Of a stretch of 64,000 nt of DNA, positions 4,961 through 60,145 are shown piece by piece. The notes beneath the pieces were generated by a model. It searched no databases. It saw only the letters and a program-made list of their open reading frames with translations, and was not told the origin of the DNA. A program made the position numbers and the translations under genes. Within the stretch, counting starts at the first letter, position 1. Each line of letters opens with the position of its first letter. Source of the DNA: an uncultured Polyangiaceae bacterium (GTDB lineage Bacteria; Acidobacteriota; Thermoanaerobaculia; Multivoradales; JAHEKO01); contig CAXMQZ010000126.1 in the NCBI GenBank assembly GCA_964195975.1, forward strand, positions 14,985 through 78,984. Reading direction: 5' to 3'.

Positions 4961-7717
4961 TCAGTTGCCCAGATCGAGCCGCACGCAGCGCTCCGCCTCT
5001 TGGCGAGTCTCGAGAAGGGCTCGCTCAATGGGTGAGGCCAGTTGATCCCGCTGTTCGAGCAACTTGGAGATCTGGTCGACCGCACTCTGGCTACAAGTGT
5101 TTCTCAAGAGTCCGTATCCATAGCTACTCAAGAAGTAGGCGTCGCGGCTCCGGCTCATCTCGGGGATCGGAGCAAGCACCTCTCCTAGTAGCGAGTTTTG
5201 GATCTCGGTCTGATGGGCCGGAAAGAGTGACGACATCGCTTGACGCTGCTGCCCGAAAGGCATCGATTCGGTTGTCTTTTGAAACTCGTCGAGCCAAGCC
5301 TGTTTTGTCACCAGATCGGGCCGCACGGCCTCGACCGCAATTGCCCAGAGTTTCCCCGAGTACGAGGCGTCCCTGTCTTTTTCTCTATCGGTCAGTCTTG
5401 GCACCGATTCGTGGTTCCAGGAGGCCAGCTGCACGAGGACCTCCCAGCGACGGTCCTGGTCGATCTCGAGCCCTTGGATCTTCTCCTTGCTGTCGAGTAG
5501 CTCTGCTAGTCGTTTCAGAACCGACTCGGTGTGAGCCGCAGAGACAAAATGATCAAACCAGACCTTCTGGAGATCCGATCCAGCCAGTGCACGTTGGGTT
5601 CCGGCCCACAGAAACTCCTCGATTCTTGGACCGTAAACACGAACCACCGATCGGGACTCTGGTTGACGACGGTGCATGAAGTCCAACGTGCTGTCGAGGT
5701 AGTCGAGCACCTGAGCCACCACTCTCACGTCGGTTTCAGTCCCCAGGAGATCCAGAATCACCCCCGCAAATCGCGTCAGCTCCAGCTCCCCCGAATTGAC
5801 CATGTCCCAGAGCGATCCCCACATCATCGAGCGGGCAAGTGCATCATCGATCTGCGACAAAGAGCGCTCCAAGGCAGTCAGACTTTGCGCATCGAGACGG
5901 ATCCGGAAATAGCCCCAGTCATCGTGGTTGGGAAACACGATATCTGGGCACGGCTTGCCGACCGCTGAGGTGAGATCGATCGAGTCTCCGGTAAGCCGTA
6001 GTGGAACGACCCCATCGAGCTCTACTCCGTTGTGCTCATCGACCGAATAAAGTGCGAGCTCGGCGCGGTGGGCGCGAACGGTCGGCAACGCTCCCGGACC
6101 CGTCTGCCACACCTCGAGCCGCGAGAGCTCACCGGCGGCGCACTCGGTCCTTGCGGCAACGGTGTCGAATCCGGCGGTATCGAGCCACTGCCGGCTCCAC
6201 TCGTCCAGGCTCTGACCCGAGGCCTCACCGATAGCTCTGATGAAGTCCTCGAGCCTTGTGTTGCTGTAGGCATGTTGTTTCAAGTACTTGCGAACGCCAT
6301 CCCGAAAATCGGCCTCACCAACAGAATAGGACAGCTGTTTTAGAACCGAAGCTCCTTTGCCATAGGTAATGGCGTCGAAGACCTCGAAAAAATCTGCCGT
6401 GTTGTTCACGGGAACCTCGATTGGATGTGTCGTCACCAATCCGTCCGCGTGATAGGCGCTGCGTTTGGAATGGAGATAGAAACTGTGCCACGCATCCTCG
6501 AACTCAGTAGCTTCGACCTTCGCCATCGTCGCCATCAGCGTCGCGAAACTCTCGTTCAGCCAGAGACCGTTCCACCACTTCTTGGTCACCAGATCTCCGA
6601 ACCACATGTGCGCCATCTCATGCAGGATGACGCCGGCCAGACTCTCACGCTGCGACTGAGTCGCCTCGCCTCGCCATACATACCCTTCCGTAAAGGTGAC
6701 CGCGGCAGCGTTTTCCATCGCCCCAATATTGAAGTCGGGAACGATCAGTTGGTCGTACTTTCCAAACGGATAGGGGATATCGAAATACCGCTGGTAAAAC
6801 GCCAAACCCTGCCGCGTGTAAGTGAACCAAGCATCGACGTCAACGGCTTCGGCCAGTGATTGTCGGGCAAAAAGCCGTAAAGGAATCTTGCCTGCCTTCG
6901 ATTCCCACATCCGGTAAGGACCGGCATGCAGCGAGTAGATGTAGGTGCTCAGCGGCGCCGACTCCGGGAATTGCCAGATTTGGGAGGTGCCGTCACCTGT
7001 CCTTGTCTCGATCTGGTTCTCCCGAGTTGTGGACACCACAGTCCAATCTGCGGGTGCCTTGACCGAGATCTGGAACCGGGCCTTCAGATCAGGTTGATCA
7101 AAACAGGGGAAGACTCGATTCGCGTAGTACGGCCAGAGATAGCTATAGACATACGACCGGCTATCGACGGGGTCTTCGAATCGGTACAGCCCTGTTCCAT
7201 CATCGCTGTAGGGATGCTCGAAACGGATCTCGACTGTGTTAGCGCCGGACTTCAGCAACGTCGGGTCGATGGACAGAAAGTACCCGTTGTAATCGGCCTC
7301 GCGCCGATGATCGTTGATGATCAGCGATTCGACATTGCCCTGAGAGAAATCCAATGTCAGCGGGGCGCGACCCGGTCGATAGTCGAAGTCGATCCGCACC
7401 GATCCTTCAAAAACCTCTTTGCCGGTCAGATCGAGATCGATCCGGTAGTGAATATCGCCGACCCTCTCGGCACGTCGAATCGCCTCCTTCTCAGAGAGCC
7501 AGTCGGCAGTCTCTCGCGGCGTGGAGGTCTGCGAATCGACCTTCGGCTCGGTGCTGCCGGCACCGCCACTCGGCGTGGCGACCATGGCCCAGACACCTAT
7601 CAGTACGATCCACACTGGGCGGCTGGGAGTGTGTTGAATCAAATCAGGTCCGATAATGGGCTCGAGTTTTGAATGTTTCTTCTGAGGATGCTCGAGGGGC
7701 GCGGCAACCAAACGCAT
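4961..7717 (-). CDS. pepN: Aminopeptidase N (M1 family) with an N-terminal membrane/signal extension
   Basis: It carries the GAMENAAAVTF exopeptidase motif, the HEMAHMWFGDLVT zinc-binding motif and the downstream WLNESFA motif. It is 918 aa. Confidence 0.85.
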   Translation of the reverse strand: MRLVAAPLEHPQKKHSKLEPIIGPDLIQHTPSRPVWIVLIGVWAMVATPSGGAGSTEPKVDSQTSTPRETADWLSEKEAIRRAERVGDIHYRIDLDLTGKEVFEGSVRIDFDYRPGRAPLTLDFSQGNVESLIINDHRREADYNGYFLSIDPTLLKSGANTVEIRFEHPYSDDGTGLYRFEDPVDSRSYVYSYLWPYYANRVFPCFDQPDLKARFQISVKAPADWTVVSTTRENQIETRTGDGTSQIWQFPESAPLSTYIYSLHAGPYRMWESKAGKIPLRLFARQSLAEAVDVDAWFTYTRQGLAFYQRYFDIPYPFGKYDQLIVPDFNIGAMENAAAVTFTEGYVWRGEATQSQRESLAGVILHEMAHMWFGDLVTKKWWNGLWLNESFATLMATMAKVEATEFEDAWHSFYLHSKRSAYHADGLVTTHPIEVPVNNTADFFEVFDAITYGKGASVLKQLSYSVGEADFRDGVRKYLKQHAYSNTRLEDFIRAIGEASGQSLDEWSRQWLDTAGFDTVAARTECAAGELSRLEVWQTGPGALPTVRAHRAELALYSVDEHNGVELDGVVPLRLTGDSIDLTSAVGKPCPDIVFPNHDDWGYFRIRLDAQSLTALERSLSQIDDALARSMMWGSLWDMVNSGELELTRFAGVILDLLGTETDVRVVAQVLDYLDSTLDFMHRRQPESRSVVRVYGPRIEEFLWAGTQRALAGSDLQKVWFDHFVSAAHTESVLKRLAELLDSKEKIQGLEIDQDRRWEVLVQLASWNHESVPRLTDREKDRDASYSGKLWAIAVEAVRPDLVTKQAWLDEFQKTTESMPFGQQRQAMSSLFPAHQTEIQNSLLGEVLAPIPEMSRSRDAYFLSSYGYGLLRNTCSQSAVDQISKLLEQRDQLASPIERALLETRQEAERCVRLDLGN

Positions 7718-7902: not shown

Positions 7903-8976
7903 GTGAATACGTCAAACATATCGACACCCCCCCATCCCGGACCACCCAATCTCGAGGCGGCCCGTTATTGGAACAAACTGCTGGCGCCCTATCAGAGGTC
8001 GAGCTACGGCAAGGCGGCTTTTCAGCTCATCTCGACCGCAGTGCTGTTCGCCAGCGGCTGGATCGCCATGTACTTCAGCCTCAACGTGTCGTATTGGCTC
8101 ACTCTAGCTCTTGCGATCCCGACCGCCGGGCTCCTGATTCGCTTGTTCATCTTTCAGCATGATTGTGGTCATGGATCTTTTTTCCCATCCAGGCGAGCCA
8201 ACGATTCCGTAGGCTTTGTTCTCGGGGTCCTGATGTTGACGCCTTTCTACTACTGGCAAAGGACACACGCCATCCATCACGGAACCTCCGGCGACCTCGA
8301 CCGCCGTAGCTTCGGAGACATCGAGACTCTCACGGTCAGCGAGTATCTAGCCCTCTCGAAGTTCGACAGGCTCAAGTATCGGATGTATCGAAACCTGTTT
8401 GTCTTACTGGCAGTAGGACCGGCCTTTCAGTTCTTGATCAAACACCGTTTGCCCATCGATATCCCGCGCTCATGGAAACGGGAGTGGAAGAGCATCATGT
8501 GGACCAACTTTGCGGTCCTCATGATCGTGGTTGTGGCATGGCAACTGATTGGTCTCAAGGCATTTCTGATGGTCCAGTTGCCGATCACTCTATTTGCTGG
8601 CGCCATCGGCATGTGGCTTTTCTATGTACAACATCAATTCGAGGACACCTACTGGAAGAACCACGAGGAGTGGGATTTCCACCGGGCAGGCATAGAGGGA
8701 AGCTCCTTCTACGATCTTCCGGCCATTCTCCACTGGTTTACAGGCAACATCGGTTTTCACCATATTCACCATCTGGCCAGCCGGGTCCCGAACTACAACC
8801 TGCAGCGGTGCTACAAAGAGCTTCCAGAGCTCCACGAAGTAACCCGTTTGAGTGTGCTCGAAAGTGTCAAGTGCGCACATCTACAACTCTGGCACGAAGA
8901 GCTCGGGAAGCTGATCAGTATTCGACAGCTGAAGCTGGCCACCGCCGCCGGATCCCAAGGCAACACCTCGAGCTAA
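7903..8976 (+). CDS. Membrane fatty-acid desaturase
   Basis: Three histidine boxes are present (HDCGH, HAIHHGTS, HHIHH), along with multiple transmembrane helices. It is 357 aa. Confidence 0.8.
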   Translation: MNTSNISTPPHPGPPNLEAARYWNKLLAPYQRSSYGKAAFQLISTAVLFASGWIAMYFSLNVSYWLTLALAIPTAGLLIRLFIFQHDCGHGSFFPSRRANDSVGFVLGVLMLTPFYYWQRTHAIHHGTSGDLDRRSFGDIETLTVSEYLALSKFDRLKYRMYRNLFVLLAVGPAFQFLIKHRLPIDIPRSWKREWKSIMWTNFAVLMIVVVAWQLIGLKAFLMVQLPITLFAGAIGMWLFYVQHQFEDTYWKNHEEWDFHRAGIEGSSFYDLPAILHWFTGNIGFHHIHHLASRVPNYNLQRCYKELPELHEVTRLSVLESVKCAHLQLWHEELGKLISIRQLKLATAAGSQGNTSS

Positions 8977-45809: not shown

Positions 45810-48137
45810 TTAACCGGGGTCGCTGGCGACTCCATCTAGAGCAATGGGAGCAGCCAAGAGCTCGTCGGGGATGCCGAACGCATCGACCAACGGAACCGCT
45901 TGCAATCGCACCTCCGCACATAGTCTGTTGACCAGCTTTCGGATCGCCTTTGATTTGGGAGCCTCCAGATAGCCGTGCGCTTGAAACCAGCCACGGCCGG
46001 CGTCGATGCGACTCAAAGCATAGAGATCACACACCAGGTCCAGCATTTCTCGCAACGACTTGTCGTCGCAGGAGTCGATGCCAGCTATGAACTGCTCGAG
46101 AACGACCGCTTCCACATGAGCCTTGGCCAACGCTATGGCGTGGTCCTGCACCTGATTCAAGGCCTCGAAACTGTCCAGCTCCTTGTCCAGTCGTTTCTTG
46201 ATGCGCTTGGCCAAGCTGATCAACAGGTGTTCCTCACGCCAGCGCAGAGCCGCGCTCTGAAACTCACGGCTTCTCAAATGCTCTTCCTCCGTTCGACGTG
46301 TCACGACCGGGTTGAGCTCCGCCATGGCTGTCGCCGCCTGCGCAGCGACATATCGAGCCAATCCGAGCACTCCCATCTCCCCGAACTGTCTACGGAACCC
46401 TGTCAGAAGGCTCTTTGATACCAATTGAAGCAAGACCGTGTTGTCACCTTCAAAGGTGGTGAAGACATCTGTGTCTGCCTTGAGCGCGGCGAATCGGTTC
46501 TGCGACAAATACCCCTGGCCCCCACAGGCCTCGCGGCACCCTTGGATCGAATCGGTCGCGTGCCAGGTCGCGTACGCCTTCAGTCCCGCGGCAAGCGCCT
46601 CCACCTCACGACGATCCTCATCGAACGATTGGACATATCGTTGGGTCAAATACTTGAGAGCGAAGTCGAGACCATAAGTCGTCGCCAGTCGAGGCATCAG
46701 ACGTCTTTGGTGGGTCCGATAGTCGAGCAGAACAATCTCAGGCTGTCCCTCCGGGCCAAACTGACGACGCCGAACACCGTACCGCGTAGCAATGGTCAAG
46801 GCTGACTTCGAGGCACTCAGTGCGCCAAGAGCAACGCTTACCCGTCCTCCGACCAGGGTGCCGAGCATCGTAAAGAAACGCTTCGCAGGGCTGGCAATCG
46901 GACTCTCGTACTCGCCATCAGCCGATACCCAACCAAATCGATCGAGCAAGTTTTGCCTGGGTACTCGAACGTCGTCAAACCAGATGCGACCGTTGTCGAC
47001 ACCGTTGAGACCCAGCTTTTCGCCACAGTCTTCGATGCCCACACCCTTGCAGGGGATTCCGTCGCCATCACGAATTGGAACCAGAAGGGCATGAACGCCC
47101 TGGTTCTGTCCCTTGACTTCGAGCTGGGCGAATACGGTTGCGAGCCTGCCGTGCAGAGCGGCATTGCCGATGTAGTCTTTTCGGGCATTTTCATTGGGGG
47201 TATTGATGGAGAACTCATCCGAGTCTGGGTCGTACCTGGCAATGGTCTCAAGATCGTAGACATTCGATCCATGGCCGGTCTCGGTCATGGCAAAACAACC
47301 GGGAAGATCGAGTGTCCCCACTCGAGCTAGGTAGGTCTTGTGGTGACGCTCGGTGCCAAGCTGAAGGATGCTGCCGCCAAAGAGCCCGAATTGAACACCC
47401 ATCTTGATCAGGACGCTCAGATCACCGTACGCCGCGGTCTCGAAGGCGGCAACAAAAGCGGCCATATCACCCGAACCTCCGACGTCGACGGGAAAGCTGA
47501 GCGAGCCGATGCCAGCATCGGCGAGAATCTGGACCCGTTCCAGCACCCTTTCCCGGTACTCCTCCGTAGTCACTCCGTAGAGATAAGCGAATTCGGGCTG
47601 GCTGATGAGGTCGCGAACCTTCCTGCGAATCGCTACTTGGTCTCCGTCCAGCAGAGTCGTCATGGCTGCGACATCAAAGGATGGCTTCGGCTCCTTGGGC
47701 GACACCGCCGGTCTTGGAGGTGCCAGAAGTCGTCGCACTACTTCTCTACCTCCCAGAGCGAGGGTCCGCTCGAGGTCGATCAGTGCGCTACGCACCGGAT
47801 CCGAGATCTCTACACCCTCGACCTTGGCCATCTGGGCCCCTAGATCGGTTAGGGAAAGCCGCTCCTCGGCCGACAATGAGGCAGCCGTGGTCCGAATCAG
47901 GGTCAGCAAGGATCCAAGCTCCAACGATGTGGGTGGGTCGTCTGGGTCGAGCCACCCTTTCAATGCCCTCTGACAGGGTTGGTCGACACCATCTACTTCA
48001 CTCAGCTTCGAACAGATCGAGCTGATCTCGCTGTCGCTCAAATCTCCGTCGGCCCAAGCCACATACAGCATGGGGAGGAATGGGTGGAGGGCCGATTCGA
48101 GTGGCTCTAGCGGGTCGCGCGTTCTTGAATGACTCAA
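45810..48137 (-). CDS. Acyl-CoA dehydrogenase/oxidase family protein with a TerB-like N-terminal domain of about 200 aa
   Basis: The ACAD fold region contains FAMTETGHGSNV. The N-terminal LYVAWADGDLSDSEISSI resembles the TerB/DnaJ-like helical motif. It is 775 aa. Confidence 0.75.
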   Translation of the reverse strand: MSHSRTRDPLEPLESALHPFLPMLYVAWADGDLSDSEISSICSKLSEVDGVDQPCQRALKGWLDPDDPPTSLELGSLLTLIRTTAASLSAEERLSLTDLGAQMAKVEGVEISDPVRSALIDLERTLALGGREVVRRLLAPPRPAVSPKEPKPSFDVAAMTTLLDGDQVAIRRKVRDLISQPEFAYLYGVTTEEYRERVLERVQILADAGIGSLSFPVDVGGSGDMAAFVAAFETAAYGDLSVLIKMGVQFGLFGGSILQLGTERHHKTYLARVGTLDLPGCFAMTETGHGSNVYDLETIARYDPDSDEFSINTPNENARKDYIGNAALHGRLATVFAQLEVKGQNQGVHALLVPIRDGDGIPCKGVGIEDCGEKLGLNGVDNGRIWFDDVRVPRQNLLDRFGWVSADGEYESPIASPAKRFFTMLGTLVGGRVSVALGALSASKSALTIATRYGVRRRQFGPEGQPEIVLLDYRTHQRRLMPRLATTYGLDFALKYLTQRYVQSFDEDRREVEALAAGLKAYATWHATDSIQGCREACGGQGYLSQNRFAALKADTDVFTTFEGDNTVLLQLVSKSLLTGFRRQFGEMGVLGLARYVAAQAATAMAELNPVVTRRTEEEHLRSREFQSAALRWREEHLLISLAKRIKKRLDKELDSFEALNQVQDHAIALAKAHVEAVVLEQFIAGIDSCDDKSLREMLDLVCDLYALSRIDAGRGWFQAHGYLEAPKSKAIRKLVNRLCAEVRLQAVPLVDAFGIPDELLAAPIALDGVASDPG

Positions 48138-48240
48138 AGAGACGCTCCTTTCAGAGGGTCGACACCAAGGGTGTCACGATCCGAAACCAGGGACTCTTGA
48201 AGTCTATCTGGATTAGCCCCATCAGAGGGCCCGTAAGATC

Positions 48241-48279
48241 GGCCTGCTACAAAGGCCTGCTACAAAGGCCCCCTACAAA
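48241..48279. repeat. Three tandem 13-bp direct repeats (GGCCTGCTACAAA x2, then GGCCCCCTACAAA) upstream of the acyl-CoA dehydrogenase gene
   Basis: The repeats were read directly from the sequence. They are a candidate operator or iteron-like site. Confidence 0.6.
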
Positions 48280-48901
48280 GGTAAGTCGAGCAAATTCCAG
48301 ATCAACAACCCGCAAAATGTCAGACCAAGAACTACCAGTACCAGGCTAGTTCTCAGATCGAGCAAGGGAATCTCGTCGAGCTTCTCCATACTGAGCACTG
48401 TGTACACGCGTCGATCGCCTTCTCCCCTTTTCCCCACAGACTCAACCTCCCTTTCTCGTCTCATGCGGATCGGGACCCGGTACCTTTACCGCAGATCTCG
48501 ATGTGAATCTTGTGGCGTCCGAGGACAGGTGAAATCCAGGCCTGGTTCAGCGGCGGCACGCCCTTTTCCTCGAACGACCAGAAGCCGAGTGTAGTGCCAA
48601 CGATCTCGAGTTGCTCAGAGCGGTGGGACCGTCCTTCCCAGGACGGTATGAGATATCGATCTATCTCGATGAAAACAGTTTGCTTAGCCTGCTGTGCGCA
48701 GAAATAGCCTTATTTGCATATCTCTTGGGGCCTACTGCCCGTATTGTTCCTGGCCGCGCCAGCAGAATGTCGCAACCGCCTGCCAGATCGGGTCGCACGA
48801 AGGCCCTAATACCGGAGGCAACCTTGAAGTATCTCGAGGAGCGAATACCGGACACGAGATGAGCCGCGGCCTTATGCTGTAGAGTTCTAAAACACTGTGG
48901 G

Positions 48902-49417
48902 CTAGTCGACTCTACGCCAGTGATCGACAAAGACCACATCGCCGTTCTCGTCGGTGGACGTAGCGGTTACTCGATTGCCTTCGAACATCGCAATCACGGC
49001 CTCACCCTTCAAGCTGAATAGGATCGTCTTGCCGTCTCGCATCACAGCGGAGCAGCCTACCTTCTCCGGAGGAGCGCCATATTTAACAACCCCTAGCCCA
49101 TCTACGTTGTTTTGCATCCAATAAATGGGGGTCTCGCAGTACTGATCCTGGGTGAGATTGTACTCACCCACGTAGGAGATCGAGGCCGTTGAGCCATCTT
49201 TGTGCTTCCAAGTAATGTTGAAATTGCGTCGGGAATTGGAATAGGTCATCATCCCGGCGACTCCTTTGGGAGCGTGGAGTTTGTTGCCACCCTTCAAATC
49301 GCGCCACATGAGCTCGTACGATCCGACCAGATCCGAACTCTGGGCCTCCGCCGGCGCCGCGGCCGACAAAGTCAATGTAAGGATCACTCCCAGGACGAGC
49401 AATGAGATGGTTCGCAT
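48902..49417 (-). CDS. Secreted lipocalin-like protein of unknown function
   Basis: I placed the start at the ATG at 49417 (MRTISLLVLGVILTLTLSAAAPAEA signal peptide), preceded by AGGAGG at a 6-nt spacing. The track ORF is longer. Confidence 0.5.
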   Translation of the reverse strand: MRTISLLVLGVILTLTLSAAAPAEAQSSDLVGSYELMWRDLKGGNKLHAPKGVAGMMTYSNSRRNFNITWKHKDGSTASISYVGEYNLTQDQYCETPIYWMQNNVDGLGVVKYGAPPEKVGCSAVMRDGKTILFSLKGEAVIAMFEGNRVTATSTDENGDVVFVDHWRRVD

Positions 49418-49515
49418 GACGGTCCTCCTGCGATGATTGACAACCGTAGCTCGATCAATTGTGGTCCGACCCTTTGCCGAGATACATATCAGCCTACGAT
49501 CCAGCCCTTGGCAAG

Positions 49516-50520
49516 TCAAGGATTCTGGGTGAGATATCGTTCGGGGCCGGCCGAAAACTTGGCCATACATCCTCCGCAACAAAAGTAGTAGTCGACTCCC
49601 TCATATTTGTAGACGTTTGAAGCTCCAGAAGGTTTCACGGTCATGCCACAGATCGGATCGATTGCGATCTCCGCGGACAACTCCGGGTCCGTCTCGACCG
49701 ATTCAGCAACAGAATCCTCGGAATCGGACCAGTCGATTGCCTCTGTATTGCAGCGAAGCTGGACAACCCGCGCCAAAATACTCAGTGCGATCTCTTCTGG
49801 CAGACGCGCCTGGATATCGAGCCCCGCCGGTGCATCGACTCGTGTTAGATCCTCCTCGGAGAATCCCTTCGTTCGCAGAAATGCGCGGATCGACTCGGAA
49901 CGCTTGGGACTCGCCACCAGACCGACATAGCCAGCACCGGCAGCCAAAGCCCGCTCTACCGCCAGCTCATCATGGTCACCATGTGTCGCAACGACGACAT
50001 AGGTCAGCGGTGTGATAAGACTGTCTATCCCGTCGAGACTGTCGGCGACCCGATCGGCGCCGTCTACCGCCTCACTCACGTCGGGAATCCTGACGCCTGA
50101 AATCGCATACCCCATGGTTTTGCCGAGAGCTACTAAAGCGGTAGCGATAGGTAAGTTGCCCACGATCAGCAAATCGGGACGAGGTTGATGTGGATCGATA
50201 TAGATCTCCATAGTTCCACCACTAAAACAAGTCATTGAAAGATCGGTCATGCCGTTGCGCTGTTGTTGGTTGTCGGGCTCGGACGAGAGGCGAATCAGTC
50301 TTGGTCGGTCGTCCCGAAGGGCAGCCAGAGCTTCCTGCAGAACCGTCGGTCGGGCGCAGCTCCCACCGATCCAGCCAAACAACTCGCCATCGAGGGTTAT
50401 GATCGCTTTGTCACCCGGCTGCCCTGATGTCGGCTTGTCGACCCGCACAACGGTAGCCGTTGCGAAGGGTTGCCCACGACGCTGAAGCTCGAGCGCCTTG
50501 GCAAAGAATTCCCGGTACAT
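49516..50520 (-). CDS. XdhC/CoxF-type molybdoenzyme maturation factor fused to a C-terminal YHS/TRASH metal-binding domain
   Basis: The XdhC_CoxI N- and C-domains are present. The final ~50 aa, DPICGMTVKPSGASNVYKYEGVDYYFCCGGCMAKF, match the YHS pattern. Confidence 0.75.
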   Translation of the reverse strand: MYREFFAKALELQRRGQPFATATVVRVDKPTSGQPGDKAIITLDGELFGWIGGSCARPTVLQEALAALRDDRPRLIRLSSEPDNQQQRNGMTDLSMTCFSGGTMEIYIDPHQPRPDLLIVGNLPIATALVALGKTMGYAISGVRIPDVSEAVDGADRVADSLDGIDSLITPLTYVVVATHGDHDELAVERALAAGAGYVGLVASPKRSESIRAFLRTKGFSEEDLTRVDAPAGLDIQARLPEEIALSILARVVQLRCNTEAIDWSDSEDSVAESVETDPELSAEIAIDPICGMTVKPSGASNVYKYEGVDYYFCCGGCMAKFSAGPERYLTQNP

Positions 50521-50538
50521 GGCAATCAGACGGTCGGT

Positions 50539-52974
50539 CTAGTCGGTAACACCGTTATCCCGCAGCAGCTTCCACACCTTGTCTGGTGTTATGGGGATAT
50601 CGATGTGTTTGACTCCCAAGTGCGAAAGAGCATCCACAACCGCATTGGCAATCGCGGGCGGCGCCCCTACGGTTGGCGACTCACCGACCCCTTTGGCACC
50701 CAGAGGATGATGTGGTGACGGCGTGATCGTCTTACCGAGTTCCCATTTTGGAGACTCGACCGCCGTCGGCAACAGGTAATCGGCAAACGTACCTGTCAGG
50801 TTCTGGCCGTTCTCGTCGTAAACGATCTCCTCGAACAAGGCCGGAGCCAGACCCATGGTCAAGCCACCCTCTATCTGGCCTTCGACGATCATCGGATTGA
50901 TAATGTTGCCGCAATCATCCACAGCCACAAATCGACGCACATGTACCTCACCGGTGCCGGTGTCGATGTCCACCACACAGATATAGCTTCCAAATGGAAA
51001 GGTTAGGTTCGGTGGATCGTAGTAGTCGGTCGCTTCGAGACCAGCCTCCATGCCTTGTGGATGATTCGTATAGGCGGCAAAGGCTATCTCTTGAATCGTC
51101 TTGGCCTGATCGGGGGAGCCCTTGACCTGCCACTTGTCGACATTCCATTCGAGATCTTCTTCTCCAACCTCTAGAAGGTGAGCCGCGATCTTGCGCGCCT
51201 TGGCCTTGATCTTTCTCGCCGCCATGGCGCCAGCTGCACCGGCCGTTGGAGTCGAACGGCTGGCATAGGTCCCCAGGCCGTAAGGGGCCGTGTCGGTGTC
51301 GCCCTCTTCGATCTGAATATCCGCTGCTGGCAGTCCGAGCTCTTCGGCAATGATCTGGGCATAGGTCGTCTCATGGCCCTGACCCTGGGATTTGGTCCCG
51401 AAACGAGCAATCGCTTTCCCGGTCGGATGGATGCGGATCTCTGCGGAATCGAACATCTTGATCCCGAGAATGTCGTAGTCCTTCGACGGCCCGGCCCCGA
51501 CCACCTCGGTGAAGCTCGATATGCCAATTCCCATCAACTCACCCCGCTCACGCTTGGCTGCCTGCTCCTCGCGAAGCGCGCGGTAGTCGATCATCTCCAT
51601 GGCTTTCTTGAGTGCGGCCTCGTAGTTACCGCTGTCGTATTCCCAGCCGGTCGGCGACTTGTAGGGAAACTGATCGGGTCGGATAAAGTTCTTGAGCCTG
51701 AAGTCGGCCGGATCCTCGCCGACTTCTGCTGCCATTATGTCGGTCAGCCGCTCGATCATGTGAACCGCTTCGGTGACTCGAAACGAGCACCGATAGGCCA
51801 CCCCACCCGGCGGTTTCGTGGTGTAGACACCGTCGACGACTACGTGTGCCGCCTTCATGTCGTAGGAACCGGTACAGATGCTGTAGAGCCCGGCGGGAAA
51901 TTTCGACGGGTTCGCCGCCGCGTCGGCTGCACCACAATCCGAGATTGTGTTCACCCTCAGACCCGTGATCTTTCCATTGTCATCTGCTGCCATCTCGGCT
52001 TCGATATGGTAGTCGCGGGCAAAGCTGTCGGCCTGTAGGTTCTCGCTTCGGTCTTCGATCCACTTGACCGGCTTTCCAGTCACTAGACTAGCAACCGCAC
52101 AACAGACATACCCCGGATAGATGGGCACCTTGCCGCCAAAACCGCCACCGATATCGGGTGAGATGATCTGCACTTTGTGCTCAGGCAGTCCACTCACCAT
52201 CGAAAACACCGTGCGGTGGGCGTGAGGTGCCTGTGATGTCATGTACATCTGCATGTGCTCGGTAACCTTGTTGTAGTTGGCCACCATGCCACAGGTTTCA
52301 ATCGAGCTGACGTGGAGCCGAGGCAGATAGATCTGCACTTTGACGACATGGCTCGCTTCAGCAAAGACCTTGTCGGTCGCCTCCTTGTCGCCGGCCTCCC
52401 AATGCCAGATATGGTTGGTCGGCTTCTCCTTGTCCTCGCGAACGATCACTTCGTCTTTGAGTGCCTCACGGGGATCGACCACCGCCGGCAACGGCTCGTA
52501 CTCGACATGGATCTTCTCGATTGCATCGGCCGCGATGTATCGGTCGGTAGCGATCACTACGCAGACTTCCTGAGCGTAGTAGATGACTTTGTCGATCGGC
52601 AGAACCATTTGGGTATCGGACATCAGGGTCGGCATCCAATGCAGGTTGCCGGCAGCTTCGAGGTCCTGACCTTTGATGACTGCCACGACGCCCTCCATCG
52701 CCAGCGCCTCACTGTCATCGATGCTGATGATCTTGGCGTGGGCGTAAGGACTGCGGACGATGTCCATGTAGAGCATGCCGGGGAGCTTGACGTCGTCGAC
52801 GTAGTTGCCCTTGCCCTGAATGAATCGCGGATCCTCCTTGCGCTTCATTCGATGACCCATTCCGCAGATGTTTTCCGGTGTGGTAATCCTCACTTTGTCG
52901 GTGGTTTCGACCTGCGCTGATGAGCCCTCGGGTGTGGGTGAGTGATGTTCGAATCGATCTTCCAACTGGGTCAT
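50539..52974 (-). CDS. coxL: Aerobic carbon monoxide dehydrogenase large (molybdopterin) subunit, form I
   Basis: It contains the form I active-site signature VAYRCSFR. It has the 811-aa xanthine dehydrogenase family Mo-binding fold. Confidence 0.9.
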
Positions 52975-53465
52975 GAGCTCACCTCCTCAGAGGTCGGGTT
53001 TGAAATCTTGTCAGCTGCGTACTCGATAGCCTCGACAATCTTGGTGTAACCCGTGCATCTACACAAATTCCCCGAAATGCCCCAGCGAATCTCCTCCTCC
53101 GTCGGGTTCGGATTGTCGGCGAGCAATTGTTTGGCGCTCATGATCATTCCCGGAGTGCAAAAGCCGCACTGCAAGCCGTGCTTTTCCCAAAAACCCTCCT
53201 GAAGAGGATGAAGACCACCGTTGGCAACACTCTCGATGGTTTCGATTGATTTGTCGTTTGCCTGCACCGCGAACAGCGTGCAGCTCTTGATGGCGCGGCC
53301 GTTCAACAGAACGGTGCAGGCGCCACAACTCGTGGTATCGCAACCGATATGAGTGCCCGTGAGATCGAGATTCTCGCGAATAAAGTGAACCAGCAGCATC
53401 CGACTTTCGACTTCACCTGTGACCTCTTCGCCGTTGACGTTCAAGGTTATCGAGTGGTGGCTCAT
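52971..53465 (-). CDS. coxS: CO dehydrogenase small subunit ([2Fe-2S] x2)
   Basis: The cysteine motifs are [11 protein letters not shown] and CGFCTPG. It overlaps coxL by 4 nt. Confidence 0.9.
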
Positions 53466-54337
53466 GTCTGGCCTCCTTTGGCTCGGTCGATCGCTTTGGC
53501 GATGGCCCTCTTGGTCACAACCCGGGTCAGGTCTCGCTTGTACTCTACTGAGCCGCGAAGATCGGCCGACGGATCGCAGGCCGCGGCTGCAGCCTTTCCA
53601 GCGGCCTCGAGAGCATCGGCAGAACCGACGCTCCCGATAATGCTTTGCTCTGCCTCGACAGCTCGCATCGGAGTCGGTGAGACGTTGGTCAGGCCAATGC
53701 GCGCGCTCGACACGGTATCCCCATCCATTTGCAGCTGAACTGCTACAGCCGAAATGGCGTAGTCGCCCACCTTGCGCTCGATCTTCAGATAGGCACCGCC
53801 ACTGCCTGTTGAAGGGGTTGGAATTCGTATCTCGGTGAGAATCTCATCGGCCGCAAGCGCGGTTTCAAACAAGCCGATGAAAAACTCATCGATTGCTATG
53901 GCTCGAGCGCCGTTGGTCCCATGAACCATGATCTCGGCTCCATAGGCCAGCATCGCTGCTGGGTGATCGTTGGCCGGATCCGCGTGTACCAGGTTGCCTC
54001 CTACCGTGGCCATATTGCGGACTAGAGGATCGGCGATGACTCGAGCCGTGTCGGCGAGAAGCGGATAGCGTTCCTGCACCAAGGGCGACCCTTCGATCGC
54101 TGACTCCCGGGTCAAACCACCGATGAGAAGATGTTTCCCCTTTTCGCGGATGTATTCGAGGTTCGGGAGTCCATTGATATCGATGAGGATCCCCGGCTGA
54201 GCCAAACGAAAGCGCATTGCAGGAATTAAGCTCTGCCCGCCTGAGAGGATTTTGGCTTCGTCGCCGTGTTGTCCAAGCAATGCAACCGCCTCCTCCAACG
54301 ACGTAGGCGAGTGGTACTCGAAAGATCCTGGTATCAC
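53462..54337 (-). CDS. coxM: CO dehydrogenase medium (FAD-binding) subunit
   Basis: The FAD-binding PCMH fold contains [12 protein letters not shown]. It overlaps coxS by 4 nt. Confidence 0.9.
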
Positions 54338-54396
54338 GGTTTGGCCTCCCTACTCTTCAAGATGGGCTCTGGAACGCGGAGTCGCAACGACCCGGC

Positions 54397-55032
54397 TCAG
54401 AGCACGAAATAGAGGATCATCAAGATGATGATGATCACGCCGATGATCATCACCGGCTTCGGAATCAGGTCTTTGGCGACTTCCTTCGCTACGTTGGCGG
54501 CAAACTCGGCTTGAGAAGGCGCTTGCGGAGCTGGGATCGGTGCAGCTTCAATGCCCGGATCTCCTGACCCGTCGACCGCGCTGGCGGCTGCGGCTCGAGC
54601 CGTGAGCGTGGCATTGAGCCCTTCGAGACTCTGTTTGATGATGGCCTTTGCCGAGCTGTCGAGTAGACGTTGGCCGACGCTGGCTATCCTTCCACCTACT
54701 TGAGCATCTCCGGTGTAGCTCATCCGCGTCTGGTCACCCTCGGAAACGAGAGCAACCGTGGCCGTGGCTTTTACAAAGCCAGGTGCGCCCCGACCATCCA
54801 CCGTCATCTTGTAGCCGTTGGGTGGCTGGATGTCCTCTAGTCCGATCTTGCCCTTGAATAGGCCCTGCACAGGTCCGATCTTGATATTCAGATCGCCCTC
54901 ATACTGGTTCTCACCCACAAGTTCGAGTCGTTCGCAACCCGGCATCGTGGCAGCCAGCACCTCCGGATCGAGAAGACCGTTCCACACCTCCTCTTTTCCG
55001 ACATCGAACAAGTAGTCGCCTTCCACCTTCAT
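54397..55032 (-). CDS. coxG: CoxG-like SRPBCC protein with a C-terminal TM anchor
   Basis: The N-terminus is MKVEGDYLFDVGKEEVWNGLLDPEVL and the C-terminal hydrophobic helix is IIGVIIIILMILYFVL. Confidence 0.8.
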   Translation of the reverse strand: MKVEGDYLFDVGKEEVWNGLLDPEVLAATMPGCERLELVGENQYEGDLNIKIGPVQGLFKGKIGLEDIQPPNGYKMTVDGRGAPGFVKATATVALVSEGDQTRMSYTGDAQVGGRIASVGQRLLDSSAKAIIKQSLEGLNATLTARAAAASAVDGSGDPGIEAAPIPAPQAPSQAEFAANVAKEVAKDLIPKPVMIIGVIIIILMILYFVL

Positions 55033-55158
55033 CTGATATCTCCCCTGGATTCAGCCCCCACATCGCCACCCGAACAAGAAACCTCCTCTCCGGTCGGCGC
55101 ATCGCCTGACTCACACTTCGCCGCCAGAATTCAAAAGAGCCGCTTTTGACCTAAGCTA

Positions 55159-56382
55159 TCACAGCCCAGGTGGGAGCCCGGCCGAGGCAAAATCGCCTGA
55201 TTTCACCGATCCCGACCGTCGTCGCGGCAGGGCTCCAAGACGCCGAGCTAACGCTTCTATCGATTGAAAGTTGTGAATCGGCAAAAAATCGTCCACATAC
55301 GGGATCGCTGCTGCCATTCCTTCGACTAACGGCTGATAGGAATCGTGGCCAAGATGCGGATTCAGCCAGATCAGGCGATGGCATCGATGGTGAAGATGCC
55401 TCATTTCGCGACTCAGGGTTTCGACATCTCCCCGCTCCCATCCATCACTGACCACGACGACGATAGCTCCCCTTCGCAACACCCGCCGGCCCCACTCGCG
55501 GTTGAAGGCGCTTAGCGAGTCTCCAATACGGGTTCCACCTGCCCAGTCGAAAACCTCCTGACCGGCTTGGTAGAGCGCCCGGTCGATATTGCGCAGACGA
55601 AGCTCGTTCGTGATCCGCGAAAGACGGGTACCAAAAACAAAACTCTCGACCCGGTGAAGACTGTGTGTAAGGCCATAGAAGAACTGCAGAACCAGCCGCG
55701 AGTACTTCTCCATCGAGCCGCTAATGTCGGCAATCAGAACTATCGGTCGTTGCTTGATCTTCCTCGACTGGTACCAGAGACGGATCGGAGTACCATCGAA
55801 CCGTGCGGCGTCGCGAATGATCCTCCGAAGATGAATCCTTCGCCCTCTGGGATCCGAGACTCGTCGCCGGGTTCGGCGTAGCGCGGCTTGCCATCTCAGA
55901 CCCTCGATCAGTTCACGCACGCTCTCGAGCTCATCCGGAGTCATGTCGGCAAAACCCTTTCGGTGAACGATCTCTTCCTGGCTATAGGTGCCGGTGCGAT
56001 CGGCGACATCGATCTTCGGATCATTCGACCCCGCCCTTGCCGCCATGTAGTGGACAAGACTGAACTGCCGCTGCTTTTTCAGGTCGTAGCGAGGTGCGAT
56101 CGGTGCCTGGGCTCGGCCGGCGGTACTGCTCGAGGTCTGCGGGTGCCAATAGCGCTCGAACAGTAGCGAAAACAGAGTCAGATCCTCTGATCTCGTCACA
56201 TAGCAGGAGCGAGCCGCACTGAAGACCTGATCCCGATTGCCGATATCGATCCAGGTCAGCGCACGCGCAAAGGTGAGGTTTTGATCGGCTGAGACCGGTA
56301 GACCTGCTCGGCGAAGAAGCCTACCGAACACTACAACATTGGATAGAAACGGCGCACCGGCTGTGGCGATGGCGGGATTCAA
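55159..56382 (-). CDS. coxE: VWA-domain protein, CoxE-like
   Basis: It has a VWA_CoxE architecture with MIDAS residues (DISGSM). It is adjacent to the MoxR ATPase. Confidence 0.8.
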   Translation of the reverse strand: MNPAIATAGAPFLSNVVVFGRLLRRAGLPVSADQNLTFARALTWIDIGNRDQVFSAARSCYVTRSEDLTLFSLLFERYWHPQTSSSTAGRAQAPIAPRYDLKKQRQFSLVHYMAARAGSNDPKIDVADRTGTYSQEEIVHRKGFADMTPDELESVRELIEGLRWQAALRRTRRRVSDPRGRRIHLRRIIRDAARFDGTPIRLWYQSRKIKQRPIVLIADISGSMEKYSRLVLQFFYGLTHSLHRVESFVFGTRLSRITNELRLRNIDRALYQAGQEVFDWAGGTRIGDSLSAFNREWGRRVLRRGAIVVVVSDGWERGDVETLSREMRHLHHRCHRLIWLNPHLGHDSYQPLVEGMAAAIPYVDDFLPIHNFQSIEALARRLGALPRRRSGSVKSGDFASAGLPPGL

Positions 56383-56395
56383 CTCGGATCGGTCC

Positions 56396-57274
56396 TCAAC
56401 CCGGAGTAACCTCTGCCACGAGCTCGGCCGTAACGCGACGCACCCGGTCTACGTCGTCCTGGTACTTCAAGAGAAAACCCAGCGTGGCTTCGACGGTTTC
56501 GAGCTCGAGTGTTTCCGAATTCAGGTGATCGAGCGCTTCGGCCCAGTCCAAGGTCTCGGACACACCTGGCTGTTTGTAGAGATCCTGAGCGCGTACCGAT
56601 TGCACAAACGCCACGATCTGGCGCGTCAATGCTTCAGGGACATCGGGCAACTTGCGACGTACGATCTCTGTTTCCTTTTCAAGCGAGGGGTATGGGATCC
56701 AGTGGTAGATACACCGCCGTTTCAATGCGTCATGAATCTCGCGCGTCCGGTTCGAAGTGATGATCGTCACCGGCTTGTGTCTTGCCTTGAGTGTCCCGAT
56801 TTCGGGTATCGTCACCTGAAACTCGGATAGCAGCTCGAGCAAGAAGCTCTCGAACTCCTCGTCTGCCCGATCGAGCTCGTCGATGAGCAGTACAGGGGCG
56901 CGATCACGGCTCTGATCGATGGCTTGCAGCAGGGGCCGTTTGAGTAAGAACTCTTCCCTGAAGATGTCTTCGGTCGAAGAGCCACTCTCCCGATGCGCTT
57001 GTATCTCCAGGAGCTGCCGGGGGTAGTTCCACTCGTAAACTGCGTGATTGATATCGAGACCCTCGTAGCACTGGAGTCTAATCAGGGGTGTCTCGAGAGC
57101 CTGGCTGAGGACCTTGGCCACCTCTGTCTTTCCGACCCCGGGCTCCCCCTCCAAAAACAGGGGCCGCTCCATCTTGAGCGCCAAAAACAGGCTCGTCGAC
57201 AGACCGCTGTCTGCGATGTAGGAGAATCGCTCCAGCTCTGATGACGTCTCTTCGATCGAATCAAACATTGCCAA
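56396..57274 (-). CDS. coxD: MoxR-like AAA+ ATPase, CoxD-like
   Basis: The Walker A is GEPGVGKT and the Walker B is LLIDELDRA. Confidence 0.85.
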   Translation of the reverse strand: MAMFDSIEETSSELERFSYIADSGLSTSLFLALKMERPLFLEGEPGVGKTEVAKVLSQALETPLIRLQCYEGLDINHAVYEWNYPRQLLEIQAHRESGSSTEDIFREEFLLKRPLLQAIDQSRDRAPVLLIDELDRADEEFESFLLELLSEFQVTIPEIGTLKARHKPVTIITSNRTREIHDALKRRCIYHWIPYPSLEKETEIVRRKLPDVPEALTRQIVAFVQSVRAQDLYKQPGVSETLDWAEALDHLNSETLELETVEATLGFLLKYQDDVDRVRRVTAELVAEVTPG

Positions 57275-57448
57275 CTCTCACAAGGCTATCAATGAACACT
57301 ATCGCGTCCTCTACTGAGCGTAAGCTCGCCGGGGGCGAATCATCGAGAATCGACTGGGCTTCGATTCATCGATCTGAGTTAGAATTGCGTCTCAGCTCCC
57401 TACTATTGTTGCAGGGCTCAGGGTTCGATTTTCCCAGAGAGGTAGATT

Positions 57449-60145
57449 TTGGATCGAGACACTCTTTCCCACTACAAGATTCTCGAGAAGGTTGGCGCAG
57501 GAGGGATGGGCGAGGTCTATCTAGCCGAAGACACCCAGCTCAAACGCAAGATTGCCCTCAAGGTTCTCAGTACCGAGACCGCCGACAATCCAGAGCGACT
57601 GGCCCGTTTCAAGCGTGAGGCGGAAATGGTGGCGGCGCTCAACCATCCAAACATCGTCACGATCCACTCGGTCGAAGAGGACGATGGAATTCACTTTCTG
57701 ACCATGGAGTGGGTCGAAGGGAAGACTCTCGGCCAGCTCATGTCGACCGGAGCGATGTCGCTCGACAGGGTGTTCGAGCTGGCCATTCCTGCCGCCGATG
57801 CCATCGCAGCGGCGCACGACAAAGGCATCACCCACCGCGATCTGAAACCGGCCAACATCATGGTGACCGACCAGGGCCGGGTCAAGGTCCTGGATTTTGG
57901 CCTGGCGAAGCTGTTCGAACAGACCGAAGGAGACCTGGCCGCCGACCAACCGACCCAGGCGCTGACTCAGGAGGGCTTGGCCGTCGGTACCGTTCCCTAT
58001 ATGTCGCCCGAACAGGTCCGTGGCGACACGGTCGATCAACGCAGCGACATCTTTTCGCTCGGAATCGTCCTTTATGAGATGGTTGCCGGCCAGCGACCCT
58101 TCCAGGGCCAGAGCTCGGCCGATCTCGTCTCGTCGATCCTGCGGGACACACCGACCTCGGTGACCGATTTCAACGCCTCGCTCCCCCACCATCTGGGGCG
58201 AGTGATTCATCGCTGTCTGGAGAAGGATCCAGAGAAACGCTACCAGACCGCAAAGGACGTGCGCAACGAGCTCGAGGGCCTCAAAGGAGAGGTCGAATCG
58301 GGTGTGGCCCGAGTCACCTCTACTTCGATGCCAGTGGCCCCACCTTCGGAGCCCAAGAGCAATTGGTTACCCATAGCCCTGGGTGCTGCTCTGGTCCTGC
58401 TCGGGCTTGGAATCATCTGGATATGGACGGGGCGACCCGATCGTGATGCTGTCACCGAGACTCAGGTGGAACCTGCCGAGAAAGCGATCTCGAGCTCAGC
58501 GAAGGCCGACCGAATCATGGCTGTCGTCTTGCCCTTCGAGAACCTCGGACCCGCCGAGGACGCCTACTTCGCAGCCGGGGTCACCGACGAGATCAGCGGC
58601 CGACTGGCTTCGGTCAGCGGTCTGGGGGTTATCTCCAGAAAAAGCGCCGCGCAGTACGCCCAAACCGACAAATCTATGCAGCAAATCGGAGACGAGCTCG
58701 GCGTCGATTATGTCATCGACGGAACGGTGCGGTGGGCCAAGCAGACCGACGGCTCGAGCCGGGTCCGGATCACTCCGGAGCTGATCGACGTCGCAAACGA
58801 TCAACAGATCTGGACCGAGATCTACGATCGGGAGATCGATGACATCTTCGAAGTCCAAAGTGAGATTGCGGGCCAGGTGATCGACGCTCTGGGCGTCACA
58901 GTTCTGGGCGCGGAGGAGAAAGCGCTGGACGTACGTCCCACCGAAAACGTCGAGGCCTATCAGGCCTTTCTGCGAGCAAGGGAGTACGAGCAGAACATGA
59001 ACCTCACCCAAAATCCTGTGGAGGCGGTAGAGAAGGCCGTCGAGTTGTATCAAAGGGCGGTCGAGCTCGACCCGAGTTTTCTCGAAGCTTGGGGACGTCT
59101 GGCGCAGCGGCAGGCTCTCATTTATGTCAGCTTCGACCGCACCGAGGAGCGACTGGCGCAGGTCAAGCTGGCAGTTGAAGGCGCCAAGGCCATTGGCGAG
59201 GACTTACCCTGGACCCGGCTGGCGCGGGGCTATTATCACTACTACGGGTTCCGGGAATATGGTCTGGCGCTCGAGGAGTTTCTGGCTGCCGCAGAAAGCC
59301 GACCCAACGACCCAGATGTGATCCAGGCTATTGGCTTTATCTACCGCCGCCAGGGCCGTTGGGAAGAGAGTCTGGACCAGCTCAACCGAGCCCTCGAAAT
59401 CGACCCTCAGGACGTGGCCCTGATTATGAACATTGCAGCGATCCATCGTGGGCTGCGTCAGGGCGACAAAGCTATCGAATACTACGACCGAGCCATGGCG
59501 GTGCAGCCGACCGCCGATCAACCCTACTTGAGCAAAGCCGACGATATCGCGGCGCTGACCGGTGATGTGGCAGCCGCTCGTGCTGTCCTCGAAGGCACGC
59601 CCGGGAACAATGCGTTGTTCGTCGACCTAGCCTGGATGTGGCAGGCGGTGCGTGAGCGGGAGTTTTCCAAGGCAGTGGAGATGGCTTCTTCGATCGACCT
59701 CGACGTGCCTGCATGGAAGGCCTTCCAACTCGGCCTTGAAGCCTGGTTCACTTATTTCGATCGAGGTCTCGAGGCCTCTCGAGACAAGCTCGAAGCGGCA
59801 GCCCAGGCCATGGAGGGCATGGTCGAGACCGCACCGAGCAACGCAGATTTTCACTCCGGGCTCTCGACCAGCCTGGCGATGCTCGGTGAGGAGACCAGGG
59901 CGATTCAAGAGGCACGCCTAGCGGTCGACATCGAGGCGAAGGATGCCTTTTCTGGACCGACCCGGCTCGAGAACCTCGCCCAGGTCTACGCCTGGACCGG
60001 GCGGAGCGAGGAGTCGATCGATCTGATCGAGCGGCTACTCACCACCGTCTATGAAGATTCGCTGACCGTGCACAGGTTGCGCCTGGAACCTTGGTGGGAT
60101 CCGCTGCGCGACGATCCGCGTTTTCAAGCACTGATAGCTGACTAG
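57449..60145 (+). CDS. Serine/threonine protein kinase with one TM segment and a C-terminal TPR-repeat domain
   Basis: It has the GxGxxG/VAIK-like region, [10 protein letters not shown] and DFGLAK motifs. A TM helix lies at about aa 310 and a long TPR region follows. Confidence 0.85.

Follow-up and report, generated by a model that had tools for sequence, protein, structure and literature searches.

Aerobic carbon monoxide dehydrogenase (CODH) removes a large share of atmospheric CO, and the model of how copper is inserted into this enzyme so far rests on mutants of Oligotropha (Afipia) carboxidovorans and on short sequence motifs. In coxE and coxF mutants of this bacterium, CODH is complete in molybdenum and sulfane sulfur but devoid of copper, and the motif M107CPSHGTM was adduced when CoxF was proposed to supply the copper (PMC4240915). 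Here we analyse a cox operon located in a stretch of 64,000 nucleotides (nt) from an uncultured bacterium (contig CAXMQZ010000126.1, positions 14,985 to 78,984; hereafter, the window). The last gene of this operon encodes a CoxF-type XdhC protein ending in a YHS domain, and in related loci the same C-terminal position of CoxF is taken by other thiolate-rich modules. The source is known from metagenome assemblies only. The exact proteins recur on an NCBI contig of 83 kb and in Logan and JGI assemblies. Named relatives are metagenome-assembled genomes (MAGs) of Acidobacteriota, the phylum to which the source probably belongs.

The cox cluster on pHCG3 of O. carboxidovorans OM5 has the same seven functions, and its proteins are one-to-one best matches to the window proteins. 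Both systems share the AYRCSFR loop of the large subunit CoxL, a Walker A motif at the same position in CoxD and the metal ion-dependent adhesion site (MIDAS) motif of CoxE. They differ in gene order, which is M-S-L-D-E-F-G on pHCG3, with D, E and G downstream of M-S-L as a previous sequence-only reading of the window had it, and D-E-G-M-S-L-F in the window. Moreover, O. carboxidovorans CoxF (280 amino acids, aa) has neither a YHS domain nor a Cys-rich tail, whereas window CoxF has a YHS domain. On the other hand, pHCG3 carries a second XdhC (CoxI) and the membrane proteins CoxB, CoxC, CoxH and CoxK, all of which are missing from the window.

Thermomicrobium roseum DSM 5159 is a cultured aerobic CO oxidiser (PMC2615216, PMC6776052) with coxMSL on a megaplasmid. 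Its CoxL is 73% identical to that of the window, and directly 3' of coxL lies an XdhC-YHS fusion (WP_143714800.1, 336 aa), annotated merely as 'XdhC family protein', which is 46% identical to the window protein over its full length and has a YHS domain scoring 58 bits. Unlike in the window, coxD, coxE and coxG do not adjoin the structural genes of T. roseum, which are flanked by a GAF histidine kinase and a response regulator. The third relevant system, the Mo-CODH of Mycobacterium smegmatis (PDB 8uem), belongs to the actinobacterial clade; its CoxG, like that of the window, is built of an SRPBCC domain, a linker and a transmembrane helix at the C-terminus (PMC12202499). Finally, XdhC chaperones of the molybdenum cofactor (Moco), namely Rhodobacter capsulatus XdhC and the structures 2we7/2we8 and 3on5, share the two-domain fold and both Pfam domains with the body of the window protein, but none of those compared has a C-terminal metal-binding domain. 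By sequence, 2we7 scores only 65 bits, its N-terminal domain matching twice, which we took as a duplication. Copper delivery is not among the documented roles of XdhC, which inserts sulfurated Moco and protects it (PMC2997495).

A complete form I CODH operon

The window almost certainly encodes a seven-gene form I aerobic [MoCu] CODH operon, the last gene of which is a CoxF orthologue. All seven open reading frames (ORFs) are intact and tightly packed on the minus strand, from 57274 down to 49516 (Table 1). They lie exactly where the sequence-only reading had drawn a coxD-E-G-M-S-L-xdhC/coxF series, and the Pfam annotation agrees with it. The same reading had called the enzyme a true form I Mo-Cu CODH, and this call is upheld by the concordance of the loop motif, the TIGR02416 score, the scores against solved structures and the M-S-L gene order; the assignment thus combines motif, profile, pairwise scores and gene order. 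Specifically, CoxL scores 1225.6 bits against the NCBIfam equivalog TIGR02416 (aerobic CODH large subunit), for which the cut-off is 991.15, while all other XOF-family models stay below their own cut-offs, the next best being glyceraldehyde dehydrogenase alpha and CODH group 5. In pairwise comparisons with Mo-Cu CODHs of solved structure, namely those from Hydrogenophaga, Oligotropha and M. smegmatis (1ffu, 1n5w and 8uem), it scores 1019–1058 bits, the M. smegmatis enzyme giving 1019, compared with 492 bits for quinoline 2-oxidoreductase. The structural genes follow the form I order, coxM-coxS-coxL, that of form II being S-L-M. Some of the related loci described below also contain form II-like sets that have AYRGAGR in place of AYRCSFR and the S-L-M order; window CoxL is 43–45% identical to the form II-like CoxL proteins of these loci.

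The individual roles can be assigned by homology. CoxM with FAD, CoxS with two [2Fe-2S] clusters and CoxL with molybdopterin cytosine dinucleotide would together form the enzyme, with the Cys of AYRCSFR as the predicted copper ligand. CoxG is expected to be a membrane-tethered SRPBCC protein of the kind that in mycobacteria hands quinone to the enzyme. CoxD (a MoxR AAA+ protein), CoxE (a VWA protein) and the product of the last gene map one-to-one to the factors that build CuSMoO2 in O. carboxidovorans. The operon is a real, complete and typical member of a large, mostly uncultured clade.

CoxF with a C-terminal YHS domain

In pairwise comparisons, the body of the last protein is 39% identical to CoxF of O. 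carboxidovorans (E 3e-39) and 25% identical to CoxI (E 4e-15). Since it is nearer to CoxF than to CoxI, we consider it a CoxF orthologue. Two Cys residues of the body, Cys55 (GGSC) and Cys98 (MTC[FY]SGGT; MTCFSGGTM in the window), are invariant in an alignment of 37 family sequences. The AlphaFold2 (AF2) model has a mean predicted local distance difference test (pLDDT) of 86.9, with about 90 for the body and 84–93 for the YHS domain. In Foldseek, the body matches the XdhC structures 2we7/2we8 (E 2e-17), the nearest being the M. smegmatis Rv0376c homologue; with the full model, the XdhC body dominated the matches, so that the search was uninformative on the YHS domain.

The sequence-only reading had recognised an XdhC/CoxF-type factor with a YHS/TRASH domain, and in this it was right. 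The YHS profile (PF04945) scores 49.0 bits (E 6e-13) over residues 287–332 against a cut-off of 30.3, covering profile positions 2–46 of 47, and the peptide DPICGMTV...YYFCCGGCMAKF is indeed present in the translated last ORF. Asp288, Cys291, Met293, Cys314 and Cys318 are invariant in the 37 aligned family members. An Asp and three Cys residues make up the proposed copper site of YHS domains (PMC4626032), and Asp288 with Cys291, Cys314 and Cys318 reproduces this pattern. Between body and domain, residues 267–282 of the linker have an AF2 pLDDT below 50, and both length and sequence of the linker vary across the family alignment. The model is thus suggestive of a small, putatively metal-binding domain on a flexible tether.

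Alternation of modules at the CoxF C-terminus

The fusion was earlier implied to be something special. It is not: XdhC_CoxI, XdhC_C and YHS domains are combined in all of the best 120 listed homologues, some with two or three YHS copies, and an exhaustive HMMER search with the XdhC body alone found a C-terminal YHS in 91 of the 150 best cluster representatives at 50% identity. In addition to T. roseum, the haloarchaeon Natronorubrum bangense has it. At the same time, we found no mention of XdhC or CoxF paired with YHS or TRASH in the literature searched, and so, as far as the searchable literature shows, an architecture common in databases has apparently gone undiscussed. Its link to CODH is close. 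With each GTDB species represented by a single genome, a search with a fusion-protein alignment returned 80 loci (L001–L080), all from MAGs. Besides Acidobacteriota (Thermoanaerobaculia) and Gemmatimonadota, these represent many lineages of Chloroflexota and a few further groups. In 70 of them a coxL encoding AYRCSFR lies upstream on the same strand, and eight of the remaining ten run into a contig end within 2.2 kb.

The YHS domain is not the only module found at this position. We took a census of 58 complete CoxF-like genes that stand beside CoxL genes 71–95% identical to that of the window. YHS domains are present in 30 (single in 26, double in three, triple in one), while 24 have instead a short disordered tail with the consensus ...TGTEGKGHCCHD (ending ...TGTEGKG[HS]CCH[DG]), scored as [GS][HS]CCH[DG]; the other four are MocA fusions without a Cys tail. 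Among the 150 XdhC-body representatives, CC motifs occur at the C-terminus in about 17. A third kind of module is provided by P0134 (L087, 8001–9038; AP019797.1), an XdhC-HMA fusion with an HMA score of 40.9 bits. Its body is 49% identical to that of the window, but instead of a YHS domain it carries a ferredoxin-like HMA domain with GMSCAHC (MxCxxC). It takes the place of CoxF in a form I cluster whose CoxL has AYRCSFR and whose gene order, unlike that of the window, is coxMSL-G-D-E-F-mocA.

The CCH-tailed CoxF genes lie downstream of coxL (L096, L098–L101, L104–L111, L115, L117–L120, L142, L149, L154, L156, L157, L161 and L162) and adjoin CoxL genes 85–89% identical to that of the window. 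In L092, CoxL is 86% identical to window CoxL, yet CoxF (8001–8870) is CC-tailed, and a KKDCCQ motif is additionally present at the N-terminus of this protein. Convergent to the CC-tailed coxF, on the opposite strand and just past it, 18 metagenome loci have a second, CoxI-like XdhC gene whose product is 25–35% identical to the window protein (for example, L099 13427–14101, L101, L105 and L107–L111). The XdhC-HMA loci L087 and L088 likewise have a separate XdhC gene on the opposite strand. The window and the YHS-type loci of the CoxL-based metagenome sample (L095–L174) have no second XdhC in the available sequence, the exception being L170 (one YHS, convergent XdhC at 5430–5978). This raises the question whether a YHS-type CoxF covers the CoxI role too. 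P0124, P0131 and P0173 are MocA (NTP_transf_3)-XdhC-YHS triple fusions of 530–565 aa, so that a single chain combines the XdhC body and a YHS domain with the synthesis of cytidylyl-Moco.

These data bear on the possibility that the gene encodes a general Moco-insertion chaperone with the role of XdhC or CoxI, the YHS domain being an evolutionary passenger without a specific role. The gene is the sole XdhC-family member in the window, the triple fusions link the family to the synthesis of molybdopterin cytosine dinucleotide, and among solved structures a generic XdhC comes closest. Nevertheless, this reading as a whole is very improbable. The YHS ligand residues are invariant across phyla, a Cys-rich appendage is kept in 54 of the 58 orthologues beside close relatives of window CoxL, the protein is nearer to CoxF than to CoxI, and loci with a CC-tailed CoxF often have a separate CoxI-like XdhC (the 18 loci above).

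A possible role in copper delivery

Three unrelated thiolate-rich modules thus recur at one position of CoxF in orthologous loci, each attached by a linker of the same kind; this is what would be expected of a site for handing off a soft metal, namely Cu(I). On this basis the YHS module of the window protein probably handles copper for the assembly of the CuSMoO2 cluster. The domain would bind Cu(I) through Cys291, Cys314 and Cys318, perhaps together with Asp288 or Met293, and, being tethered, would hand the ion either to the XdhC body or directly to apo-CoxL, into its substrate funnel. The recipient apo-CoxL would already be sulfurated, so that copper transfer would complete the Mo-S-Cu bridge. 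CoxE would be the partner of CoxF in the copper step, and CoxD would act earlier, in sulfuration. The copper-delivery idea had been put forward in the sequence-only reading; it is reasonable, it agrees with the published model of CoxF as copper supplier (PMC4240915), and it is strengthened by the HMA and CCH appendages, although copper binding itself is a prediction. A broader proposal is that the C-terminal modules of CoxF, whether one to three YHS domains, HMA or just a CCH tail, can stand in for one another as Cu(I) donors that load the copper of CuSMoO2, and that CoxF is the dedicated CODH copper chaperone, the proteobacterial and actinobacterial model organisms happening to belong to lineages that lack the module. 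Judged from sequence comparisons, it could equally well hold or fail.

Thiols may also carry sulfur. XdhC proteins stabilise sulfurated Moco (PMC2997495), CoxF has been suggested to protect Mo-SH (PMC4240915), and CC and Cys-rich tails could carry persulfides. The appendage might then be a persulfide relay that supplies or protects the bridging sulfido ligand of CuSMoO2. However, the enzyme of the coxE and coxF mutants retains near-stoichiometric sulfane sulfur and is without copper (PMC4240915), and both HMA and YHS are metal-binding folds, not known sulfur carriers, all of which makes such a relay very unlikely.

A precedent for the domain itself comes from copper ATPases and the adenylyl cyclase of Mycobacterium phlei. 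Their YHS/TRASH domains belong to the same Pfam family, have the same Asp and three Cys as the window domain (PMC4626032) and, like it, sit at the C-terminus behind a linker that joins them to a catalytic or chaperone body. The role proposed for them is copper sensing or regulation, whereas the partner in the window is an enzyme-maturation factor. Following this precedent, the YHS domain could be a copper sensor that gates the activity or stability of CoxF according to copper supply rather than a donor: the M. phlei cyclase is switched on by 1–10 uM Cu2+ via its short-linker C-terminal YHS (PMC4626032). We assign little probability to this explanation. The modules that replace YHS (CCH tail and HMA) are typical of chaperone or donor sites, and there is no sign of a regulable catalytic activity in the XdhC body, either here or in the literature consulted. 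Besides, sensing and donating are not mutually exclusive.

Several observations nevertheless weigh against copper handling by the appendage. The published CoxF motif MCPSHGTM aligns with M96TCFSGGTM in the window protein, with the His lost, and TC..GG is also present in the mycobacterial XdhC 2we7; for both reasons the body motif is weak evidence for copper, and MTCFSGGTM may reflect Moco binding in general. Active enzyme is also made by lineages that have no appendage at all. Neither O. carboxidovorans CoxF nor the actinobacterial CoxF-like protein that we examined (Nonomuraea) has a Cys-rich appendage, which means that the module is inessential to CoxF function generally. In the CoxF-like protein of Deinococcus sp. 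AJ005 (L083, 12604–13665), the YHS domain is degenerate (SPVDGEE...YYFTCANC), with the first Cys gone and the Cys spacing altered; the module may have decayed or been repurposed. HMA domains and Cys tails can bind other soft metals. Two loci, L072 and L080, encode the fusion without cox genes in the 10 kb upstream, and these orphans contradict the otherwise nearly true notion that the fusion is confined to cox loci. Finally, a PDB sequence search with the YHS peptide gave weak matches only (E 0.015–0.17), to eL24, an MYM zinc finger and phenol hydroxylase PHN, whose sites bind zinc and not copper.

The last result, as the sole PDB sequence matches, together with weak Pfam zf-FCS and TRASH matches on relatives, would suit a structural zinc ribbon used for docking or dimerisation, for example to CoxE, CoxL or the membrane, rather than a carrier of active-site copper. 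Such a ribbon seems unlikely. An HMA domain or a three-residue CCH at the same position cannot stand in for a folded docking domain, whereas both can bind a soft metal, and a YHS copy number of one to three suits metal capacity better than docking. More generally, the alternation of YHS, HMA and CCH is hard to square with a purely structural role, and copper handling by the appendage is the reading that we prefer.

Gene order and gene content in relatives

The sequence-only reading had described the gene order of the window as non-canonical. In fact, D-E-G-M-S-L-F is the modal order among relatives and departs only from the Oligotropha textbook case. The series coxD-coxE-(coxG)-coxM-coxS-coxL-coxF is found in at least 40 of the 80 fusion loci, and eight more start inside coxE; the sole coxD/E pair located downstream (L004) comes after a second, form II-like S-L-M set. 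A reciprocal sample, obtained by comparing window CoxL with metagenome contigs (80 loci, L095–L174, CoxL 71–95% identical), has the same D-E-G-M-S-L-F pattern. Other orders are M-S-L-G-x-F-D-E in Deinococcus, G-M-S-L-F-D-E-DUF364-XdhC in Natronorubrum and the AP019797.1 order given above. The synteny of cox genes was already known to be variable (PMC12202499).

In the two samples (L001–L080 and L095–L174), CoxL is 79–90% identical across MAGs of Acidobacteriota, Gemmatimonadota and Chloroflexota, while the adjoining CoxF is only about 50% and CoxE 50–60% identical. Either CoxL is very strongly constrained, or the cluster has been transferred horizontally.

Several genes recur around the cox clusters of relatives. 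A GAF-domain histidine kinase and a LuxR-type response regulator, candidate cox regulators, flank the cluster in about 19 Chloroflexota loci (among them L007, L010, L013, L019, L023, L024, L026, L030, L031, L034, L041, L047, L050, L055, L075, L076 and L078) and in T. roseum (L081, 1796–3681). In L004 (11266–17117), L012, L027, L036, L040 and L062, a form II-like coxS-L-M set with AYRGAGR lies no more than 10 kb from the form I genes, and some of these sets have their own coxD/E or coxG. A DUF364/DUF4213 gene, described in Pfam as 'putative heavy-metal chelation', lies directly 3' of xdhC-YHS in seven Chloroflexia-type loci (L042 11136–11891, L053, L054, L061, L062, L066 and L074) and also inside the Natronorubrum cox cluster (L085, 15013–15933); it is absent from the window.

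Gene calls and neighbouring genes

The intergenic gaps, from coxD to coxF-YHS, are 13, 126, 59, -4, -4 and 18 nt, coxS overlapping both coxM and coxL by 4 nt. CoxD, CoxE and CoxG have the domains of their families, and their best pHCG3 matches are the corresponding Cox proteins. The Walker A motif of CoxD is GEPGVGKT (residues 43–50), and the MIDAS motif of CoxE is DISGS at residue 219. In CoxG, as read from the sequence, a long Ala/Pro-rich linker precedes a C-terminal hydrophobic helix (residues 193–211, nt 54400–54456). The coxD ORF opens with TTG at 57274, and an in-frame ATG two codons on, at 57268 (MAMFDS...), may be the true start; the choice makes no difference to the reading of the locus. 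The NCBIfam names MadB and MadC, offered for the CoxD/CoxE/CoxG set, were rejected for scores far below the cut-offs; glyceraldehyde dehydrogenase subunit names, also below their cut-offs, were not accepted as identities.

Table 1. Features of the cox locus and the adjacent gene, numbered along the whole stretch. All assigned Pfam domains score above their gathering scores; identities are to the corresponding O. carboxidovorans proteins.
Feature	Coordinates	Strand	Assignment and evidence
coxD, MoxR-type AAA+ ATPase	56396..57274	-	Pfam AAA_5/AAA; 52% identity, E 2e-95
coxE, VWA-domain protein	55159..56382	-	Pfam VWA_CoxE, 203 bits; 34% identity, E 9e-51
coxG, SRPBCC-fold protein	54397..55032	-	Pfam COXG, 93 bits; 37% identity
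coxM, FAD-binding medium subunit	53462..54337	-	Pfam FAD_binding_5 and CO_deh_flav_C; 44% identity
coxS, small subunit, two [2Fe-2S] clusters	52971..53465	-	Pfam Fer2_2 and Fer2; 61% identity
coxL, form I molybdopterin large subunit	50539..52974	-	Pfam Ald_Xan_dh_C and MoCoBD_1/2; TIGR02416; 61% identity
Active-site loop AYRCSFR, CoxL residues 393-399	51778..51798	-	Sequence; aligns with the same loop of 1ffu
xdhC/coxF-YHS, last gene	49516..50520	-	Pfam XdhC_CoxI 65.8 bits, XdhC_C 92.7 bits, YHS 49.0 bits
CoxF-type XdhC body, residues 1-257	49750..50520	-	XdhC_CoxI N-domain (13-77) and XdhC_C Rossmann domain (117-251)
Acidic linker, residues 258-286	49663..49749	-	Predicted disordered; sequence NTEAIDWSDSEDSVAESVETDPELSAEIAI
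YHS/TRASH domain, residues 287-332	49525..49662	-	Pfam YHS (PF04945)
Adjacent gene, 171-aa all-beta secreted-type protein	48902..49417	-	Signal peptide; no Pfam or NCBIfam match

The operon is flanked by unrelated genes: a Ser/Thr kinase with TPR repeats (57449–60145), divergent from coxD, an acyl-CoA oxidase and an ABC transporter. No Pfam family matches the roughly 160 residues by which the acyl-CoA oxidase homologue (45810–48137, minus strand) is extended at its N-terminus. The closest contigs, L093 and L094, retain the entire neighbourhood, including synteny of the acyl-CoA oxidase gene and its neighbours (the ABC transporter, a PEMT-like protein and Band 7). Within the 64-kb window there is no second XdhC or CoxL paralogue, and an Rfam scan of the whole window gave zero matches, hence no Moco riboswitch. 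A promoter and terminator scan of 48000–58000 predicted fewer sites than in shuffled sequences, none of them between cox genes or before the 171-aa ORF, and is therefore uninformative on co-transcription.

The 171-aa ORF begins 98 nt downstream of coxF-YHS and has a ribosome-binding site, AGGAGG; the N-terminus of its product resembles a signal peptide, and no terminator is predicted in the 98-nt gap. It had been described as an apparently co-transcribed gene for a secreted lipocalin-like protein. The ORF, ribosome-binding site and signal peptide are real, but conservation is limited to the immediate lineage and the match to calycins is weak. The protein is 71–77% identical in L093 and L094; since the whole neighbourhood is syntenic there, the adjacency carries no functional weight. 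Only 10 homologous clusters make up the family, all at least 68% identical, and none of the 80 related genome loci contains the gene. AF2 predicts an all-beta protein (pLDDT 71), with weak Foldseek matches (best E 1.5e-3, template modelling score 0.3–0.45) to designed barrels, fatty acid-binding proteins, nitrobindin and lipocalins, so that a lipocalin-like fold is possible. We rejected the ORF as a cox accessory gene because of its absence outside the immediate lineage, and its involvement in the cox system is unlikely.

Implications for CODH maturation

The value of this locus lies in a comparative pattern, the alternation of YHS, HMA and the CCH tail on CoxF, and not in the gene order or the fusion as such. 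The recurrent fusion of CoxF to recognised soft-metal-binding modules provides independent, sequence-based support for copper handling by CoxF. It also calls for caution, because the textbook Oligotropha cluster turns out to be unrepresentative both in gene order and in CoxF architecture. The T. roseum and haloarchaeal proteins offer practical experimental systems, and specific residues to mutate are indicated. Were the C-terminal modules of CoxF indeed interchangeable Cu(I) donors, the motif-based hypothesis of 2014 would become a directly testable mechanism, with the cultured T. roseum to hand.

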